64,000 nucleotides of DNA from the NCBI GenBank assembly GCA_963785145.1, contig CAWAUF010000015.1:14120-78119 (forward strand), given 5' to 3'. The notes under the pieces were generated by a model. That model was not told the DNA's origin. It was given only the letters and a program-made list of their open reading frames with translations, and made no database searches. The position numbers and the translations under genes were made by a program. Below are positions 1 through 64,000 of the stretch, piece by piece (position 1 is the stretch's first letter; each line of letters opens with the position of its first letter). The DNA comes from an uncultured Gammaproteobacteria bacterium (GTDB lineage Bacteria > Pseudomonadota > Gammaproteobacteria > Legionellales > Legionellaceae).

Positions 1-112
1 TTTGGATAATCGCTTATTTTATCTTCAGGTATATTATTTTTAGCCATTGATACATCCTCATTTTTTATAAATTATAACACTTCCAATTGGGATTGGAATT
101 GAGAGGATTAAC

Positions 113-173
113 GCGATGCTCAACTTTTCACGGAACCATACGGGCCCGGGCCCGTGAGCGAGCCCGAGCCCGC
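113..173. repeat. Left terminal inverted repeat (about 61 bp, GC-rich) of the composite mobile element. It contains the internal perfect palindrome ACGGGCCCGGGCCCGT.
   Basis: Its reverse complement is found at 1222-1282. The same sequence recurs at 43535-43595, 62841-62896 and 63940-64000. Confidence 0.85.
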
Positions 174-184
174 CCGAGTTCCGC

Positions 185-538
185 CTAATCTGTTTTTTTT
201 GCCATTTTAGTCAACATCATAACAATGCGATTCAGTAATTCTCTTGTTAATTGATAATATTCATCATGTATAATGTTTAAACGTTTGGATACTTCCAATA
301 TCGCTGCGGTTTCTGTAGCAGAACGTTTTGCCATGCGGTAGAATCTACTTTTTTCGTTAGGGGAGAACTCTCCTGAGCCCTCAGCAATATTCAATGAGAT
401 CGATGTCCCAGCTCGTTGAAGTTGGTCGGTTAAATAAGCTCTGCCGCGAGGAAAAGCTGTAGTGATTTTATCAATGAATACCACAACCTCAATGGAGGCT
501 TGGTATACATCCAATTTTTCAAAATCGAAATAACTCAT
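185..538 (-). CDS. Four-helix-bundle protein (23S rRNA intervening-sequence protein / Avd-like family, PF05635-type)
   Basis: 117-aa ORF with the family-typical N-terminus (FxxLxVYQxSIEVVVFIDKIT...FPR) and the NIAEGSG core motif. Identical copy at 63579-63932; frameshifted copy at 43608-43962. Confidence 0.7.
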   Translation of the reverse strand: MSYFDFEKLDVYQASIEVVVFIDKITTAFPRGRAYLTDQLQRAGTSISLNIAEGSGEFSPNEKSRFYRMAKRSATETAAILEVSKRLNIIHDEYYQLTRELLNRIVMMLTKMAKKTD

Positions 539-653
539 AGTTGGATTTCCTTATAATTAAGTTTTGGACTTGAAACAATTTCCTGTTGAGTGACATAGCG
601 CTTTATTGTAATTTGGTTCGCTAAAAAGTGGGGCATTATCAGATAAACTTCAT

Positions 654-1217
654 ATGGCAGATGGATTGCCAATGCCTATTTGCCATTTTAAACGCGCGGG
701 ATTTAGTTCCATCTTTAAGGGTATTGCATCCTATGGTTACTGTGCCTCCAAGAGCGAGACCTACTACGGCTTTAAAGGCAATCTTGCCATTGGTTCCGAT
801 GGGATGATCACAGGAATCACTGTGACGCCGGCTAACATTGATGAACGTGAATCATTATGGGACATCATTGGAAACATTCGCGGTCTTTTAATCGCAGATA
901 AGGGTTTAATTGGCGAGGATTATCAAGCACAAATCAGAGAACACACACAAGTTAACTTGCAGACACCATTACGTAGCAATATGAATGACCCGAGAGGGAG
1001 GCATTTTAGTCGCTGGCTAACATCAACAAGACGACTGGTTGAAACAGTTATTGGGCAACTATCGCAGCAGTTTCACATCGAAAAAGTCAGAGCAAGAGAT
1101 CTGTGGCATTTAACAAACAGAATTGGGAGAAAAGTACTAGCGCATACTGTTTGTATGATGGTCAATAAAATATTAGGAAATCCTCCCTTACAATTTGAGT
1201 GCCTTGAAATTGTTTAA
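654..1217 (+). mobile_element. IS982-family DDE transposase, C-terminal about two thirds only (N-terminus deleted)
   Basis: 187-aa ORF with IS982-like motifs (PMPICHFKRAGF, YGYCASKSETYYGFKG, ADKGLIGEDY). The N-terminal tnp segment is missing here, but remnants of it survive in copy B at 44074 onward (MPIEDFIITVFCLIDDECKK). Confidence 0.7.
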
Positions 1218-1221
1218 AAAC

Positions 1222-1282
1222 CGGGCTCGGGCTCGCTCACGGGCCCGGGCCCGTATGGTTCCGTGAAAAGTTGAGCATCGCG
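1222..1282. repeat. Right terminal inverted repeat of the composite element
   Basis: Reverse complement of 113-173. Confidence 0.85.
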
Positions 1283-1360
1283 TAGGATTACAATTATTTT
1301 AGGTGCAAATGGATTAAGCATGTCGTATCATCGAAGGGTCTATTTTTATGGAGTAAATGC

Positions 1361-1789
1361 ATGAGAGGATGGAAATCGTTATTCGTTTTTGCAGTATCAT
1401 TCACCCCAATGACTCTGTCCGCCGCAATATCCCCTGTTGGCACCTGGACAACCATTGATGATAAAACTGGAGAAAAAAGAGCCGTGGTTCGGATTGAACA
1501 ATCTGGAAATACATTGACTGGTACTATTGTAAGAGTTTTCCCTCAAGCCGGAGACACCGGGATTTGCAACAACTGCCCTGGGGAGTTTAAAGATCAAAAA
1601 ATTCAAGGCCTGCAGTTTCTTCGCCAACTAACCGATGACGGTCACGGCGAATGGGGTGGTGGCACCATTCTTGATCCAAAAACGGGTAAAATGTACAGAG
1701 CCAAAATCACTGTTGCTGGCAATAAACTTTATGTCCGCGGATACATTGGCATATCCGCCATAGGCAGGACACAAACCTGGATACGATAA
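1361..1789 (+). CDS. DUF2147-like secreted protein (signal peptide)
   Basis: 142-aa ORF with an N-terminal signal sequence and the GxWxTIDDKTGE motif typical of DUF2147. Confidence 0.45.
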   Translation: MRGWKSLFVFAVSFTPMTLSAAISPVGTWTTIDDKTGEKRAVVRIEQSGNTLTGTIVRVFPQAGDTGICNNCPGEFKDQKIQGLQFLRQLTDDGHGEWGGGTILDPKTGKMYRAKITVAGNKLYVRGYIGISAIGRTQTWIR

Positions 1790-18994: not shown

Positions 18995-19987
18995 TCACTC
19001 CATCTGGAGATTTGAAAATTTCAAAGTAAGCGGCGGAATGTCATCCTTCAAACGATTCTTTAATTGTTCCAAGGTGGGTCTCTTTTTAGGATCCTTTGCT
19101 AAGCAGTCCTCGATTAAGGCACTTAAATTTTCATCGGTTTCATCAAACACATCATTCATGAGTACCCCAAGAGAGTATACGTCCATTTCTCGAGTAGCCA
19201 TTACGGGAATGGGCCTCACTGACCAGCATTCCGGGGGAATGTGCTCGTAATCTATTTTATACTGTTCTACTGTGGCCTTGTTGACTTTCTGAAAGGCAAG
19301 GGGATCAATAGGCGTGTTTGCTGGGGCAGAAAGGCCTCCATCAATCAAATAGCTTTTTTTGGTAGCGGCATCAAAATAAATGTTATCCGCTTTCAATCAA
19401 ATCATGATCATCCCTTTTTGATGACACTCATGTAATGCATCTATTGCCGAGGAAAAAAGAACTCTTTGAAATTCTGGATTGTCCATTTCAAGTTTTTCAT
19501 AGGGAACATAGGGTACATAGGGTACAACCAGCCTGTAGCCGGGCTTGGTATTGAATAAGTGAGTTTGCTTGTCTGTATAGACGGTCTTAAAAAATCTTTG
19601 TTTAATAGAAGCTTCGCCTTTATCTTCAGGCAGCTTGACTGAAGATAAAACGACTACGGCTTTGCTAAAGCCAAAGCTAGAGCTTGGCCTTCTTCTTAAT
19701 CTTCTTGGGGTTGAGTGTAGGCTTGGGCTTGGGCTTGGGCTTGGGCTTGAGACTGAATTCGGTTTAGATACTGGGTTTAAGCCCAGGGCTGGGCTTGAAT
19801 CCAAGCTGGTACTTGAATTTGGGTTTTTGGTCAAGCTAGGCTTCAACTGAGGCCCAGATTGAAACAGTCTGGCACGCGCGTAGTCACCACTCCCAAGAAC
19901 CGTTACAGGATGATAGGTTGTTCCTCCATCGCTTTCATATTCTGAATCATCTAATGCTTCATTCGCTTTATTTTTATAACGTCCCAT
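18995..19987 (-). pseudogene. Atypical eukaryotic-like protein-kinase paralog, interrupted by an in-frame TGA near 19397-19399
   Basis: Split across ORFs 19397-20062 and 18995-19396, which together align with the intact paralog at 27139-28071. The break is HQKGMIMI*LKADNIYF here versus HQKGMIVVDLKADNIYY there. Also carries an (SP)n linker encoded by a (GGCTTG)5 repeat. Confidence 0.55.
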
Positions 19988-20482
19988 AACAACAACCTTA
20001 AAATAAATTGTCCATTTTTTTCTGAACAAGAATGATTTAAAAACTCCTCTATTCACATACAATAGACATCATTCTTTCTCATTAAAACAAAGTGCTCATT
20101 TAATTACTGTTAAATGGGACTATGATGTTATTTTATTGCATCAAAGTCAATTCTATTTTCACAATTAGCTTCCAAAAGAGCTCGTCTTTTAGACCCGAAC
20201 TGACAGCGTCCACATCTTGATCGCGCTTCAAAACATGTTGTGACGATTGTTTAAAATTCTGTAATTTTAAAATGTGCACCTGGGTTTAGGTGCATTATAA
20301 ACGGTTTGTCCATGGCGTATGATGGTGATTTTCGCTTTGATGTTTTTAAGTGGACCGACTTTTTCCGAGGCATGCATATGATCTAAAAGTACATTCAAAC
20401 GTTTGGTCGTAAACATTGTTTCTCCTAATCCCAAACGATGGGGGGATTATTCACTGTTTAAGCAGGTTATGCAATGGAAAAT

Positions 20483-43327: not shown

Positions 43328-43534
43328 TCCTTACAAGGCTTGAAATTTGCCGATTATTATATCAAATTACTGCAAGAATGGGTATCTTATTTTTTTATTA
43401 TTATTTTTATTCGAGTTGCATAATAAAAAATGTTTCTAAAAGAGATAACCCGATTATTTGCTACAGTAATTTTCCCTATCACCAGAAAAACGTCCATATT
43501 TCTTGTTTGATAAAGATGATCATAGATATCTTGA

Positions 43535-44460
43535 CGCGATGCTCAACTTTTCACGAAACCATACGGGCCCGGGCCCGTGAGCGAGCCCGAGCCCGCCCGA
43601 GTTCCGCCTAATCTGTTTTTTTTGCCATTTTAGTCAACATCATAACAATGCGATTCAGTAATTCTCTTATTAATTGATAATATTCATCATGTATAATGTT
43701 TAAACGTTTGGATACTTCCAATATCGCTGCGGTTTCTGTAGCAGAACGTTTTTGCCATGCGGTAGAATCTACTTTTTTCGTTAGGGGAGAACTCTCCTGA
43801 GCCCTCAACAATATTCAATGAGATCGATGTCCCAGCTCGTTGAAGTTGGTCGGTTAAATAAGCTCTGCCGCGAGGAAAAGCTGTAGTGATTTTATCAATG
43901 AATACCACAACCTCAATGGAGGCTTGGTATATATCCAATTTTTCAAAATCGAAATAACTCATAGTTGGATTTCCTTATAATTAAGTTTTGGACTTGAAAC
44001 AATTTCCTGTTGAGTGACATAGCGCTTTATTGTAATTTGGTTCGCTAAAAACAGAAATCACAAGGAGTAGCACTATGCCAATTGAGGACTTTATCATTAC
44101 GGTATTTTGCTTAATAGATGATGAGTGTAAAAAAATCGGTGGTGGTCATAGATTAACGCGATGTTCGACTTTTCCCATCCTGAATTGAACTAAATTTGAA
44201 AAACACAGCATTTTATTGTAATTTTTGGTTCGCAAAACAGAAATTACAAGAAGTTACCCTGTGTCAGTTGAAGATTTTATCATTGCTGTGTATTGTCTGT
44301 TGAATTAAGAAAGATCACTGAGGTTCATCGATTGAGAAGCCGTGGTTTTGAACTGAAATTGTCAGATGCGGAAGTGATTACTATGGATATTGTTGGATAG
44401 TTTTTAGGCAAGGATACAGATGCAGGCATTAGGAATGGTTCTTAATTGTGAATGGCAGTG
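43535..44460. mobile_element. Composite element, copy B (degenerate): left IR, frameshifted four-helix-bundle gene, two tandem remnants of the IS982-like left end and tnp N-terminus; no right IR
   Basis: The IR at 43535-43595 has one mismatch. The four-helix-bundle gene has a 1-nt insertion (ORFs 43608-43811 and 43687-43962). Tnp N-terminal fragments are MPIEDFIITVFCLIDDECKK at 44074 and VSVEDFIIAVYCLLN at 44262. Confidence 0.65.
43608..43962 (-). pseudogene. Four-helix-bundle protein gene, frameshifted copy
   Basis: Two overlapping reading frames together reproduce the 117-aa protein of copies A and C; the extra T lies near 43752. Confidence 0.6.
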
Positions 44461-45880: not shown

Positions 45881-47530
45881 CTATTTTGCCCAAGTGTCTT
45901 TTAAATCAACCACACGATGAAAGGCTTGTACCTGCCCATCTGTTTGTGCATTCACACAATAATAACCGAGACGTTCAAATTGAAAAACCTCGCCACAATC
46001 TTGTTTTTCCAAAGAAGGTTCACAATAAGCGGTCAGTGTTTGTAACGAATTATGATTTAAAAACTGTAAAAAATCGTCCTCTCGCGCAGGATTTGGATCA
46101 TTGAACAATCTATCGTATTGATACACAGTGACCGGCTTTGCATGCGCACAAGAGACCCAATGAATAACTCCCTTCACTTTACGCCCCTCAGGATTTTTAC
46201 CCAAGGTGTTTTCATCATAGGTACAACGCAACTCGATGATTTCCCCTTGAGGATTGCGCACAATCTCATGGCATTTGATCACATAAGCATAGCGCAAACG
46301 AACCTCTCCCCCCAGGGTTAATTTAAAAAATTTCTTAGACGCTTCTTCCATGAAATCGGAACGTTCAATGAATAATTCTCTAGAAAAAGGCAGGTCACGC
46401 TTTTCAGACTCCGGATCTTGTGGGAAAAAGGGACATTTCAGAGTTTCGGTTTTCGATTCAGGATAGTTTTCCAGGATTATTTTGAGAGGATCCATCACGC
46501 AAAAGGCACGCTTGGCGGTTTTATTCAACTCCGCACGCACGCATTCTTCGAATAAAGACATCTCAATGACTGAATCACTGCGCGATATGCCTATCATCTC
46601 ACAAAATTGTCGAATGGCAGCAGGCGGATAACCTCGTTTTCTCATGCCACGTAAAGTAGGCAATCGAGGATCGTCCCAGCCAGAGACGATGTTTTTCTCC
46701 ACCAATTCTCGCAATTTGCGTTTGGAAGTCACGGTGTGGGAGAGATTCAACCTTGCGAATTCCGTTTGAATGGGTTTTGCCGGTAAAGGCAAATGATCAA
46801 CCAACCAATCATATAAAGGCCGGTGATCTTGAAACTCAAGGGTGCATAAGGAATGCGTGATTTTTTCCAGGGCATCTGAAATCGGGTGGGCATAATCATA
46901 CATAGGATAAATGCACCATTCATCTCCAGTGCGTTGATGATGTGCATGGCGTATGCGATACAAGACTGGATCGCGCAGGTTGATATTGCCCGATTGCATG
47001 TCAATTTTTGCTCGAAGCACATGAGTGCCGTCGGAAACTCACCAGCTTTCATCCGTTTGAATAAATCCAAACTTTCGTCCATGGACCGATTGCGATAAGG
47101 ACTGTCGCGACCAGGTTCTAATAAATTGCCTCTATGGGCACGAATTTCGTCCATACTCAGACTGTCCACATAAGCCAAGTTCTTTTGAATGAGCACAATG
47201 GCCAGATCGTACAGTTCTTGATAATAATCCGAGGAATGCGTCAGTGCACGTCCATTCAAAACCCAACCAGCGCACATCATCTATGATGGCATTGACGTAT
47301 TCTTCCTCTTCTTTGATGGGATTGGTATCATCAAAACGCAACAAGCAAGTGCCTGAAAACTCTTCGGCCAAACCAAAATTGAGACAAATTGATTTTGCAT
47401 GTCCAACGTGCAAATAACCATTGGGTTCTGGCGGGAATCGGGTCACTATGGCTTTATGTTTGCAATTTGCCAAATCGTCTTTAATCAATTGTCTGATAAA
47501 ATGTGGGCGTTTTTCAATTAAGTCGGTCAT
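45881..47530 (-). CDS. glnS: Glutamine--tRNA ligase (reading frame broken twice, near 47130-47280 and 46750-47020)
   Basis: Three consecutive ORFs (47132-47530, 46747-47280, 45881-47020) are collinear with GlnS; HIGH motif HVGHAKS is present. Confidence 0.8.
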
Positions 47531-48344
47531 GCTGTTGTTCCATTGTTATCGATTGCAACTCGCATCGAGTTGATCAGAGTGACACCTGCTTGAAGTGGGT
47601 TTCCATCGCGTTCATAGCTCTCAAAAAGTTGATTGACTAAGGCTGCACCTACTATAACACCATCCGCAAAACTTGCAACCTTTGCAGCCATTTCGCCTGT
47701 TTTAATGCCAAATCCGACCATCAAGGGCAGTTTGGTTTGCGCCTTTAATTGCAGGTATTGCGATTTTAATGAGTTGATGTCCAGCGAATCGGCACCGCTG
47801 ACTCCTTTTAAGGAGACATAATAGAGATACCCTTCGGCCATTTGATTGATCAAAATCATGCGTTCTTGAGTAGTGGTGGGTGAACACAGATAGATGTTGT
47901 ACAGGTGGTGTTGTTTCCAGATTTTTGCGACCTCAGTACTTTCTTCTGGTGGGAGATCCACGAGAATGGTCCCATCGACGCCTGCATCAACAGCCTCTTG
48001 GGCAAATCCATCGTAGCCGTATTGTTCAAGGGATTCACATAACTCATGAGAATAAGGGCTGTGTGTTGATCCTGTTTGCGAAACTCTTTGACCATCTCCA
48101 AGACATCTTGGCAGCGAATGTTGTGGCTTAAAGCACGTTCCATGGCATGCTGGATAACCGGGCCTTCTGCCATGGGATCGGAAAAGGGAATGCCCAACTC
48201 TAAAACATCCGCTCCGGCTTCAACCAAGGCATGCATGATGTTGACCGTGAGGTTCGGATGCGGATCCCCTGCGGTGATGTAAGGGCTTAGCATTTTTTTC
48301 CCACTGACCTTTAATTCTGACAAAATAGTATCAATTCGATTCAT
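47527..48344 (-). CDS. trpA: Tryptophan synthase alpha chain (frameshift near 48080)
   Basis: ORFs 47856-48344 and 47527-47961 correspond to the TrpA N- and C-terminal halves. Confidence 0.75.
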
Positions 48345-48347
48345 AAT

Positions 48348-49556
48348 ACACCATCATTTAATCCAATGTAATTCCGTCAATCTCAGCTACAGTATGCATG
48401 TCTTTATCTCCTCTGCCGGATAAACAGACGATGATGTTTTCATGCTTGGACATCCTTGGAGCCAATTTCAACGCATAAGCCACCGCGTGGCTTGATTCCA
48501 GGGCTGGCATGATGCCTTCCACACGCGTTAAAGTACGAAAGGCATGCAGCGCTTCTTCATCGTTTATGGCTTCGTAGAGGACTCGGCCAGAGTCTTTTAA
48601 ATAGGCATGTTCTGGTCCTACTCCAGGATAATCCAGACCGGCGGATACGGAGTAAGTATCTTTAATTTGACCAAAATCATCGCAGAGCAGATAGGTGCGA
48701 TTGCCGTGTAAAACCCCAGGTCTTCCAGCCGTTAAGGAGGCCGAATGTTACCCGTGTTGAGACCCTTTCCCCCAGCCTCGATTCCATACATGGCAACGGC
48801 TGGATCATTTAAAAAAGGATAAAACAGTCCAATGGCATTCGAACCTCCACCCACACAGGCGACCAGGGCATCAGGTAATTTTTGGTGATTTCCAGGCATT
48901 GTTTTTTTGCCTCATCCCCAATGATTCTTTGAAAATCCCTAACCATTTGTGGGATAAGGGTGGGGTCCTGCGGCAGTTCCAATGATATAAAAAGTATTGT
49001 CTACATGGCTAACCCAATCCCGCATCGCTTCATTTAAAGCATCTTTTAAGGTTTTGGAGCCAGAAGTGACTGGAACAACGGTGGCGCCTAATAATTTCAT
49101 GCGATAGACATTGCTGGATTGTCGCTTGATGTCTTCTATACCCATGTAAACGACGCATTCCAAGCCCAGCTTCGCAGCGATGGTGGCCGTGGCCACCCCA
49201 TGTTGGCCAGCGCCGGTTTCAGCGATGACTCGGGTTTTTCCCATGCGTTTTGCCAGCAGCCCCTGGCCCACGGTGTTGTTGATTTTATGCGCACCAGTAT
49301 GGTTCAAATCTTCTCGTTTCAGATAAATTTGGGCGCCTTTTAATTGTTGACTCAATCTTTGGGCGTGATACAGCGGATTTGGTCGACCAACATAGTTGGC
49401 TAATTCTGTTTGCAATTGCGCTTTAAATAGAGGATCGTCTTTGTACTGTTCATAAGCCGCTTCCAATTGCGATAAGGCATGGACTAAGGTATCGGCCACA
49501 AACATGCCGCCATAAGGACCAAAATGTCCGCGATCGTCAGGAAGTTCATAGGTCAT
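48348..49556 (-). CDS. trpB: Tryptophan synthase beta chain (at least three homopolymer frameshifts in the 3' half)
   Basis: The N-terminal 205 aa is intact ([12 protein letters not shown] site). The C-terminal half is recoverable only by shifting frame at A-runs (for example ggtaacattcg where ggtaaacattcg is expected). Confidence 0.75.
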
Positions 49557-62558: not shown

Positions 62559-62899
62559 ACAACTCATGAAACTCTCCAATCAACGATTTGCCCATGAAAT
62601 GGCTTTAGCCATTATAACCTTCTAATGGACTTGGAGCCAGCGATTTGAGCGCTAGGGGTGCTGATTTGTCATAGGCAGACAGTTTGATTGTTTAAAGATC
62701 AAAATCCAATGGATAACAATATGACGGTGGGTTTGGCCTGTCCTGATTTGCGAGAAAACTTACACCCAAGGATGGTAAAGGCCCAGTTAGCAAATGCAGC
62801 ACCTATACAGAAAATGAAGCGTATAAAAAGAGATTTATAACGCGATGCTCAACTTTTCACGGAACCATACGGGCCCGTGAGCGAGCCCGAGCCCGGTTT

Positions 62900-63463
62900 T
62901 TAAACAATTTCAAGGCACTCAAATTGTAAGGGAGGATTTCCTAATATTTTATTGACCATCATACAAACAGTATGCGCTAGTACTTTTCTCCCAATTCTGT
63001 TTGTTAAATGCCACAAATCTCTTGCTCTGACTTTTTCGATGTGAAACTGCTGCGATAGTTGCCCAATAAATGTTTCAACCAGTCGTCTTGTTGATGTTAG
63101 CCAGCGACTAAAATGCCTCCCTCTCGGGTCATTCATATTGCTACGTAATGGTGTCTGCAAGTTAACTTGTGTGTGTTCTCTGATTTGTGCTTGATAATCC
63201 TCGCCAATTAAACCCTTATCTGCGATTAAAAGACCGCGAATGTTTCCAATGATGTCCCATAATGATTCACGTTCATCAATGTTAGCCGGCGTCACAGTGA
63301 TTCCTGTGATCATCCCATCGGAACCAATGGCAAGATTGCCTTTAAAGCCGTAGTAGGTCTCGCTCTTGGAGGCACAGTAACCATAGGATGCAATACCCTT
63401 AAAGATGGAACTAAATCCCGCGCGTTTAAAATGGCAAATAGGCATTGGCAATCCATCTGCCAT
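62900..63463 (-). mobile_element. IS982-family transposase C-terminal fragment (copy C)
   Basis: 186 of 187 aa identical to the product of 654-1217. Confidence 0.7.
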
Positions 63464-63578
63464 ATGAAGTTTATCTGATAATGCCCCACTTTTTAGCGAA
63501 CCAAATTACAATAAAGCGCTATGTCACTCAACAGGAAATTGTTTCAAATCCAAAACTTAATTATAAGGAAATCCAACT

Positions 63579-63932
63579 ATGAGTTATTTCGATTTTGAAA
63601 AATTGGATGTATACCAAGCCTCCATTGAGGTTGTGGTATTCATTGATAAAATCACTACAGCTTTTCCTCGCGGCAGAGCTTATTTAACCGACCAACTTCA
63701 ACGAGCTGGGACATCGATCTCATTGAATATTGCTGAGGGCTCAGGAGAGTTCTCCCCTAACGAAAAAAGTAGATTCTACCGCATGGCAAAACGTTCTGCT
63801 ACAGAAACCGCAGCGATATTGGAAGTATCCAAACGTTTAAACATTATACATGATGAATATTATCAATTAACAAGAGAATTACTGAATCGCATTGTTATGA
63901 TGTTGACTAAAATGGCAAAAAAAACAGATTAG
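63579..63932 (+). CDS. Four-helix-bundle protein (copy C)
   Basis: Product identical to that of 185-538. Confidence 0.7.
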   Translation: MSYFDFEKLDVYQASIEVVVFIDKITTAFPRGRAYLTDQLQRAGTSISLNIAEGSGEFSPNEKSRFYRMAKRSATETAAILEVSKRLNIIHDEYYQLTRELLNRIVMMLTKMAKKTD

Positions 63933-64000
63933 GCGGAACTCGGGCGGGCTCGGGCTCGCTCACGGGCCCGGGCCCGTATGGTTCCGTGAAAAGTTGAGCA

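Follow-up and report, generated by a model that had tools for sequence, protein, structure and literature searches.

Canonical members of the IS982 family of insertion sequences (ISs) are about 0.96-1.16 kb long, with one open reading frame (ORF) and terminal repeats of 18-35 bp, and their target duplications span 3-9 bp (ISfinder). Here we analysed a 64-kb stretch (64,000 nt, hereafter the window) of an uncultured Legionellaceae genome, and we describe in it an element that shares with this family a DDE transposase scoring above the model cut-off, 5'-AC terminal repeats, 7-8-bp target duplications, and multiple copies with deletion derivatives. It differs from the family in the 1.5-kb length of its lineage, in a second, divergent gene encoding a four-helix-bundle (4HB) protein, and in compound 62-bp repeats, the inner part of which is a GC-rich array of short units. 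Copy A, the first copy in the window, is probably a non-autonomous, internally deleted form of an IS982-family IS of about 1.5 kb, which bears an extra module, the arrays and the 4HB gene, inside ordinary 27-bp repeats. Literature searches turned up neither a comparable passenger gene in IS982 nor anything on array-flanked 4HB genes across transposon families and in solitary cassettes.

The protein family of this passenger, PF05635, is also found in the intervening sequences (IVSs) of 23S rRNA genes. In Coxiella burnetii the IVS is an insert of 428-444 nt, the complementary termini of which pair into a 28-bp stem enclosing an S23p (PF05635) ORF; RNase III was shown experimentally to cut within the stem, and the 5' part upstream of the ORF contains tandem GACAGAT heptamers, the number of which varies between strains (PMC4990558). 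The origin of the Coxiella IVS "remains unclear", and transposition is one old hypothesis (PMC4990558). The module described here has its nearest known counterpart in such ORF-containing IVSs; it resembles those of Coxiella, Leptospira, and Brucella in the protein family and in having the gene between complementary arms, which in the window can form a perfect 62-bp stem of -146 kcal/mol, and the minimum-energy fold of the whole element pairs its ends. It also resembles the Coxiella IVS in having short tandem repeats of variable number, as in the variation of GGGCCC units in the window, and in size, about 0.45-0.7 kb once the transposase is absent, as in related derivatives of 677-719 bp (L007, L008, and L018). 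These derivatives consist of outer repeat, array, 4HB gene, array, and outer repeat, and their ends are real transposon ends. However, the window module does not lie in an rRNA gene (the IVS sites are helix 9, 25, or 45 of the 23S rRNA gene) but has bona fide transposon ends and target duplications, and strong purifying selection acts on its 4HB gene, in contrast to the Coxiella ORF, which reportedly is decaying. The neighbours of the three window copies are protein-coding housekeeping genes, and an Rfam scan of the window and 20 related loci found no cassette inside an rRNA gene. By analogy, the array-plus-4HB module may be the same kind of thing as the ORF-containing 23S rRNA IVS.

Several other systems are close in one respect each. 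Xcc0516 (2gsc) and BT_0352 (2rld), of the "S23 ribosomal protein family", are the closest solved structures to the window 4HB protein, but the Xcc0516 orthologues examined in Xanthomonas occupy a fixed accB-accC site outside any transposon and have heptamer instead of hexamer arms. Avd of diversity-generating retroelements (DGRs; 4dwl, 8ub7) has the same fold, belongs to a pentamer-forming family, and binds nucleic acid with an enzyme, but the window gene neighbours a transposase, with no reverse transcriptase and no template/variable repeats. Miniature inverted-repeat transposable elements (MITEs) and other deletion derivatives also keep the ends and the target duplication while the transposase is not working, and also form series of deleted copies. 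The "transporter ISs" likewise have a passenger gene inside their repeats, but the window passenger is not adaptive cargo such as a resistance gene; it is part of a module that brings cis elements of its own to both ends of the IS and that is common to three unrelated IS families.

The IS982-type unit and its passenger gene

Copy A is a 1173-bp unit (window positions 111-1283, Table 1) ending with perfect inverted repeats, in which 111-172 and 1222-1283 are 100% complementary over 62 nt. The 7-bp direct repeat AGGATTA stands immediately outside the unit on both sides and is the target-site duplication, which means that 111-1283 was inserted as a single unit. The original prediction, made from the sequence alone, had described terminal inverted repeats of 61 bp and about 75% GC in a genome of about 40%. 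The repeats are real, and the composition was roughly right: the 62-nt repeat has 67.7% GC, its inner 35 nt 80%, and its outer 27 nt 52%, while the window has 42.9%. The predicted self-complementary GGGCCC palindrome, ACGGGCCCGGGCCCGT, was seen in both arms of copy A (140-155 and 1239-1254), and the unit said to be missing from copy C is indeed missing from its transposase-side arm. A 19-nt outer motif had 5 matches in the window versus 0.02 expected by chance, and a 14-nt array motif had 13 versus 0.10; the matches of both motifs were confined to the five element ends of the window.

The transposase ORF of copy A matched the IS982 model NF033520 over positions 77-242 of 243 with 180.1 bits (cut-off 130), so it is N-terminally truncated, and the IS982-like transposase fragment of the original prediction was identified correctly. 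The transposase of a full-length relative with 99% identical DNA scored 224.8 bits over positions 1-241 of the same model (cut-off 130). An exact-protein look-up found the identical 117-aa 4HB protein on other contigs, including L001 and L002, which contain 1500-bp elements with the same 62-bp ends as in the window, the 4HB gene, and a divergent, intact 297-aa transposase gene, the sole mobility gene of these full-length copies. The original prediction had proposed a search for such copies and for flanking duplications, and had held that full-length copies with conventional ends and no 4HB gene would make the association coincidental; the L001 and L002 copies keep the 4HB gene. Since full-length copies carry it inside the same ends, the 4HB gene is a genuine passenger, as had been suspected.

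The whole unit moves by DDE transposition with 7-8-bp target duplications. The L001 and L002 copies have distinct duplications (TAAAATTA, TATACTT, TGAGCTA, and TAATTTT), and altogether six IS982-type copies (two in L001, two in L002, L094, and the window) have duplications of 7-8 bp, each different. BLAST comparison with full-length L001 showed that copies A and C are without full-length positions 518-841, a 324-bp deletion with 3-bp junction microhomology, which takes out the promoter of the transposase gene together with codons 1-100. It is this deletion that reduces the transposase to a fragment, and copies A and C, which have neither the first 110 residues of the transposase nor its promoter, would need mobilisation in trans. 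Copy A is thus MITE-like, in that the ends and the target duplication are kept, the working transposase is gone, and autonomous-looking relatives exist in L001 and L002. The nearest named carriers of this IS are Legionella sp. W05-934-2 and Legionellaceae metagenome-assembled genomes (MAGs).

Relatives found in a metagenome scan with the transposase were in three states. The first, a canonical 1002-bp IS982, has ends ACGCGAT...TCAACTTTT without any addition (L099, L100, and, at their left ends, L095 and L104); in the second, GC-rich arrays lie inside both ends while the 4HB gene is absent (L094, 1154 bp; L097/L098, 1162 bp); and the third combines the two arrays with the 4HB gene (the window, L093, L103, and L107). 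When the ends were aligned, the outermost 27 nt proved to be the conventional IS982 repeat in every relative, with or without arrays, and the arrays to be inserted just inside this repeat, at one and the same position on both sides. The sequence ACGCGATGYTCRACTTTTC is common to the element and to its canonical relatives (L095, L099, L104, and the IS at window 44156), and the ends of the element are of the ACGCGATGCTCAACTTTTCAC type and of the form ACGCG...CGCGT. The unit has the transposase of the IS982 family and its 5'-AC repeats flanked directly by a short target duplication, but it departs from the compact single-ORF format of about 1 kb (two genes and 1500 bp in full length, 1173 bp in the window), and the excess over the canonical 1002 bp is due to the inserted module.

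The family assignment of the 117-aa protein in the original prediction was borne out by profile searches against PF05635 (E 2.9e-26, 92.2 bits, cut-off 33.8) and TIGR02436, "four helix bundle protein" (E 5e-25, 87.8 bits, cut-off 24). The AlphaFold2 monomer (pLDDT 93.1) has helices at residues 6-27, 34-54, 60-86, and 92-116, and the model shows the four-helix-bundle fold, with Foldseek TM scores of 0.80-0.88 to 2gsc and 2rld. The best Foldseek matches were 2gsc (Xcc0516; E 4e-6, TM 0.88, 33-34% identity) and 2rld (BT_0352), followed by DGR Avd (4dwl and 8ub7; TM 0.73-0.82, 7-10% identity). The motif GxxRxxxSxxxNxxE (PMC3936711) is present in the window protein as R42...S46...N50...E53. The 2gsc and 2rld entries have five chains each, and Lin et al. 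2006 (as cited in PMC4990558 and PMC3936711) describe Xcc0516 as a homopentamer; by analogy, the window protein may form a homopentameric ring. Its dN/dS versus the 4HB copies in other IS backbones was 0.04-0.09, with synonymous sites saturated between backbones, and such low values in spite of the saturation mean that the 4HB protein is functional and not decaying cargo. The protein had no match among the defence-system families of PADLOC and the phage families of PHROGs, and a plasmid collection gave two distant cyanobacterial matches and nothing more. Homologues at 60-94% identity were numerous, many of them on contigs of about 1.4-2.0 kb, as expected of repeated elements.

A portable module in transposons and operons

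The array-plus-4HB module is portable: it occurs within IS982, IS630, and NF041680 (IS701-like) elements and alone in operons, and in every context inverted arrays of 6-7-nt repeats bracket the 4HB gene. The IS630 carriers are L012-L015, from separate ENA, JGI, and NCBI assemblies (one NCBI record is labelled Babeliales), and L056, which is Verrucomicrobia-labelled. They have a 347-aa transposase followed 5 bp on by the 4HB gene, and in their 68-nt inverted repeats (CGGGCA)n lies inside an AT-rich outer stretch. The NF041680 carriers (L009, L018-L053, L026, and L068) have an outer repeat, ACTGGACTTTGGACAAAC..., unrelated to that of the window, but their inner array and 4HB gene (89% identity) nearly match those of the window. 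At least 35 NF041680 copies were found in MAG MFD02248.bin.1.53; deletion derivatives of 353-1586 bp are among them, many with their own 7-bp duplication, which means that they were mobilised in trans. In the same MAG, an IS66-family element with a 462-aa transposase is nested in an NF041680-type 4HB element (L028:1809-4357).

Two candidates for a fourth IS family were rejected. In a Gemmatimonadales genome (L086:2600-4215), an IS4-family element with a 389-aa transposase is inserted into a solitary 4HB gene flanked by (GCAAGA)n, so that the cassette is the target and not the cargo. The arrays of L055 bracket an IS66 fragment, but the contig stops before the outer repeat, and this locus was not counted.

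Solitary cassettes of 470-660 bp with no transposase were found in Chlamydiae, Verrucomicrobia, Bradymonadia, Gemmatimonadota, and an archaeal MAG (Thermoplasmatota), with lineage-specific units such as ACGTGA, ACGCTC, and GAGCAA. A 4HB gene between accB and accC was present in five Xanthomonadaceae genomes of four named genera (two Xanthomonas, one Stenotrophomonas, a Lysobacter-type metagenome contig, and one Luteimonas); the protein is 84-88% identical to Xcc0516, and the gene is flanked by (GGGAATN)4 and its inverse. The accB-accC operon, which is essential, is interrupted by the 4HB gene in all of L110-L116 (Xanthomonas, Stenotrophomonas, Lysobacter, and Luteimonas). Some annotations there read the upstream array as the first codons of the protein (MENRES...), and in L115 the 4HB ORF continues across the downstream array into the accC start. 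On plasmid pPg_01 of Pseudanabaena galeata (L108:2270-2960), the 4HB gene separates cas6 from cas4 in a type I-D CRISPR-cas operon, with 13 GCTAAAA units upstream, 9 GCCAAAA units downstream, and AGCTTTT units further upstream, so both direct and inverted orientations are present. Genes of the 4HB type scattered in cas loci were already noted (PMC3936711).

One further locus is interrupted after its array. In a Chlamydiales-labelled contig (L016:2441-2861), a 4HB gene 98% identical to that of the window is followed by the same array, and 5 nt after the array palindrome a sequence beginning with GTGCGCC is inserted, directly behind ...CCCGTATG. By eye, this insert looks like the beginning (5' end) of a group II intron, and certain bacterial introns of this class are inserted behind terminator-like hairpins.

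The arrays themselves follow a clear pattern. Across 25 distinct elements the core is a 32-nt template, (CGGGCN)2 CGCNCA (CGGGCN)2 CG, in which nearly all fixed columns exceed 90% conservation and the sixth nucleotide of each unit is free to vary. At these free positions the two arms of one element match 110 times and differ 15 times. The conserved template and the agreement of the arms at free positions together mean that both the sequence motif and the arm complementarity are maintained. Among 52 distinct 3' flanks, 33 had period 6 as their best lag, versus 7 of 47 control segments. In copy A the left array has an 11-nt extension (173-183) that is present on the left side only. Changes in unit number recur (copy C, L004, L024, L028, and L098 left versus right), which fits replication slippage; in L004, a copy unrelated to copy C, the GGGCCC unit was lost from the 4HB-side arm.

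If we consider all these contexts together, PF05635 genes may be the core of a very widespread and previously unrecognised cassette (an inverted array of 6-7-nt units, the 4HB gene, and a second inverted array) that tolerates or exploits its own transcription as part of host RNAs and rides in DDE transposons of several families; the transposase-less derivatives of about 0.5-0.7 kb would then be the direct source of ORF-containing 23S rRNA IVSs, and the pentamer would recognise its own arrays. We hold this full reading to be possible but rather doubtful. If true, it would explain the origin and mobility of IVSs, a question open since about 1990, and would give a first function to a large protein family. 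Apart from this, PF05635, with thousands of members in operons, cas loci, and rRNA genes, is now tied to a DNA signature, the inverted short-tandem-repeat arrays, and to demonstrable transposition. One module of a small gene with cis arrays is common to three unrelated transposase families, in Legionellales and in Babeliales-, Chlamydiales-, and Verrucomicrobia-labelled MAGs, and to our knowledge transposons that exchange a common accessory module have not been described. Within the IS982 family, the element defines a lineage whose passenger gene is genuine and whose 62-bp ends are compound; annotation pipelines built for 1-kb one-gene elements would split or miss it. The old proposal that rRNA IVSs are relics of mobile elements can now be tested directly, and so can the binding of the pentamer to the flanking repeats; Xanthomonas and Legionella sp. 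W05-934-2 are suitable culturable organisms.

Possible roles of the arrays and alternative readings

Two mutually compatible models may account for the arrays. In the first, a read-through transcript would hold both arms, and the 62-bp stem formed by them (about -146 kcal/mol) would be cut by RNase III; the cutting would remove the element RNA from host transcripts and so make insertions less harmful. By its likeness to the IVS stem this model is worth considering, but we put it somewhat short of an even chance. In the second, the arrays would serve as repeated binding sites for a ring-shaped, Avd-like 4HB pentamer. The conserved core with a free spacer and the roughly five units per arm suggest such a putative binding site, and we give this model about the same chance as the first.

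Arrays of the Legionellales type could also fold alone, with G-U pairs, at the 3' end of the outward-facing gene, and such hairpins may mark the point where each of the two mRNAs ends. On the 4HB sense strand the left array forms a hairpin of -46.5 kcal/mol (z -4.6) versus -31.9 on the other strand, and on the transposase sense strand the right array forms one of -36 kcal/mol (z -3.5) versus -25.4 (z -1.6). A scan of window 1-1500 found no intrinsic terminators, the array hairpins being without a T-run, and promoter-like sites in the same region were no commoner than in shuffled sequence. The local hairpin was rejected as a general explanation, since it is lineage-specific and absent from the (CGGGCA)n arrays. 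A G-quadruplex reading of (CGGGCN)n was rejected as well, since four G-runs are missing from the arrays of other lineages (ACGTGA in Gemmatimonadota, ACGCTC in the archaeal MAG, GCTAAAA in cyanobacteria, and GGGAATN in Xanthomonas). At the gathering threshold, Rfam had no match in the window or in 20 cassette loci, so the arms are not a described RNA family.

Several observations weigh against the main reading, some of them against its RNA stem and hairpins in particular. The (CGGGCA)n arrays fold no better than shuffled sequence. Mismatches between arms were G-U-compatible in 31 cases and A-C in 33, which means no RNA strand bias, and the sense and antisense duplex energies of seven further cassettes gave no consistent preference. 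The Xanthomonas arms even pair better in antisense (-69 kcal/mol) than in sense (-50.6), and across five Xanthomonadaceae genomes two-sided changes were found in just 2 of 31 arm pairs; the arms of this family form four 6-bp helices with conserved 1x1 mismatches between them. The 4HB gene and the transposase ORF of the window element diverge from each other, so both arms could share one RNA only through read-through from outside. The array-bearing relatives without a 4HB gene (L094 and L097/L098) indicate that the gene is not needed in cis; they suggest that it was lost or that the protein is supplied in trans. No autonomous, full-length copy was found in the 64-kb window, so mobilisation in trans in this very genome would be read from the relatives. 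Finally, the reading offers no mechanism for the arrival of arrays just inside both repeats, with the transposase between them, in three IS families, and the arrangements seen are not those expected if a cassette had simply entered an IS, or an IS a cassette.

The strongest alternative is that the arrays are accessory sites at the DNA level, to which the 4HB pentamer would bind at both ends of the element, helping or restraining the assembly of the transposition complex; it would be an accessory factor encoded by the IS and open to any DDE transposase. The conserved 5-nt core with free spacer in every lineage (CGGGC+N, GGGAAT+N, and AAAAGC+N), the match between about five units per arm and a pentameric family, and the same position of the arrays just inside the terminal repeat in three IS families all speak for it, as do the arm mismatches without RNA strand bias and the structural relative Avd, a nucleic-acid-binding enzyme partner (8ub7). 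But the cassette also exists where there is no transposase (accB-accC and cas operons), which means that transposition cannot be its basic role. Transposition also continued in derivatives whose 4HB gene is truncated, IS982 relatives have arrays without the gene, and a spacing of 6-7 bp is awkward for a ring on double-stranded DNA. On balance we consider this alternative unlikely.

The original prediction had suggested, as a possibility, a distinct, larger, non-IS982 element with GC-rich termini, carrying the 4HB gene together with a dead IS982 fragment. It was right that the repeats are true termini of a mobile unit, with the duplication directly outside, and that no further IS982 right end follows the transposase stop codon before the repeat. 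However, that end is absent there because the outer 27 bp of the repeat are themselves the IS982 end: they are shared with canonical 1.0-kb relatives, and the duplications lie outside these 27 bp. The GC-rich part does belong to the 62-bp repeats of the mobile unit, but it is an internal array, which in the IS630 and NF041680 elements stands behind quite different outer repeats. In addition, the full-length copies have only the IS982 transposase as mobility gene. A separate larger element is therefore very improbable, and what the repeats bound is better read as the IS982-family unit with its inserted module.

That the 4HB protein is the Avd of a decayed DGR, with the inverted repeats unrelated to it, is less probable still and can hardly be maintained. 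Many Avd proteins belong to the same Pfam family, and the fold resembles Bordetella phage Avd (4dwl and 8ub7), but the sequence identity to Avd is far below the 33-34% to the non-DGR protein Xcc0516. In agreement with the original prediction, no RVT domain, and hence no reverse transcriptase, turned up when the genes called up to about 5-7 kb from the three copies were scanned with Pfam, and the repeat comparison of the window gave no template/variable repeat pair near any copy. In more than 100 related loci the 4HB gene lies within IS elements or operons, and sequences related to reverse transcriptase are limited to two short RVT-domain ORFs beside the L002 element and to the putative group II intron of L016. 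A chance juxtaposition or assembly artefact, with a 4HB cassette and an IS982 fragment caught between two solo IS ends, could appeal to the nested, broken IS remnants at copy B, but it has practically no chance of being correct, given the same architecture in independent ENA, JGI, and NCBI assemblies, the different duplications of copies at different sites, and two identical copies 61.6 kb apart in the window.

Copies in the window and other features

Besides copy A, the window contains two more copies, B and C (Table 1). Copy B is adjoined and truncated by the second IS982-family element, the transposase N-terminus of which is broken by stop codons. Copy C is 100% complementary to 117-1247 over 1131 nt.

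Table 1 Features of copy A and of the further IS982-type copies in the window
Feature	Position	Strand	Basis or remark
Left target-site duplication AGGATTA, copy A	104..110	.	sequence reading; heptamer twin at 1284-1290; also scored automatically
Left inverted repeat, outer part, conventional IS982 terminal repeat ACGCGATGCTCAACTTTTCACGGAACC	111..137	+	aligned to the ends of L095, L099, and window 44156
Left GC-rich hexamer array, 80% GC	138..183	-	32-nt core 141-172; directly 3' of the 4HB stop codon
Intact 117-aa 4HB passenger gene	185..538	-	PF05635 and TIGR02436 HMM matches, AlphaFold2, Foldseek, dN/dS
IS982 left-internal region 5' of the transposase gene	586..627	+	homologous to the region from repeat to transposase start in canonical relatives and copy B
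Deletion junction with AAA microhomology	625-627		end of the IS982 left-internal region
Truncated IS982 transposase ORF, 187 aa	654..1217	+	NF033520 and PF13612; residues 111-297 of the 297-aa protein
Right GC-rich hexamer array	1222..1256	+	perfect complement of 138-172; 4 nt past the transposase stop codon
Right inverted repeat, outer part, conventional IS982 terminal repeat	1257..1283	-	motif matches, end alignment
Right target-site duplication AGGATTA	1284..1290	.	sequence reading
Copy B, remnant	43534..44155	+	99.5% identical to positions 1-622 of the full-length element
Copy B, left repeat and array	43534-43595		
Copy B, 4HB pseudogene	43608-43962		1-nt insertion (frameshift)
Copy B, IS982 promoter region and first 26-27 transposase codons	from 44075		
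Second, degenerate IS982-family element, left end	44156..44440	+	without array and 4HB gene; ACGCGATGTTCGACTTTTC end
Copy C, inverted relative to copy A, cut by the window end	62840..64000	-	has the 324-bp deletion of copy A
Copy C, transposase-side arm	62840-62895		one GGGCCC unit fewer
Copy C, transposase fragment	62900-63463	-	
Copy C, 4HB gene	63579-63932	+	

The identical inverted copies A and C (117-1247 and 62870-64000) enclose a 61.6-kb stretch of housekeeping genes (dnaB, alr ... glyQS) and form a ready substrate for a large inversion via homologous recombination, or formally a composite transposon. Within the bracketed region, glnS is split into two ORFs (132 and 379 aa), and trpA (162 aa) and trpB (205 aa) are truncated (window 45881-47530 and 47856-49556). 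These look like pseudogenes, and together with the IS load they suggest a genome in decay.

Three further repeats were seen in the window. A 26-nt perfect inverted repeat (about 42 nt with an adjoining 85%-complementary pair) at 25022-25063 and 26983-27023 encloses about 1.9 kb with two ORFs (458 and 117 aa), neither with a Pfam match; the 117-aa ORF had no tblastn match and is thus not a 4HB homologue, and the bracketed region may be another small mobile element. A diverged inverted duplication at 19218-19952 and 27186-27752 (448 nt and 97 nt, 73% complementary) corresponds to genes of eukaryote-like Ser/Thr protein kinases, one intact (27139-28071) and one fragmented (18995-20062). The third, a 278-nt direct repeat of 70% identity (20858-21135 and 21578-21855), lies within a 604-aa ORF with two HIT-like (PF22088) stretches and is an internal domain duplication.

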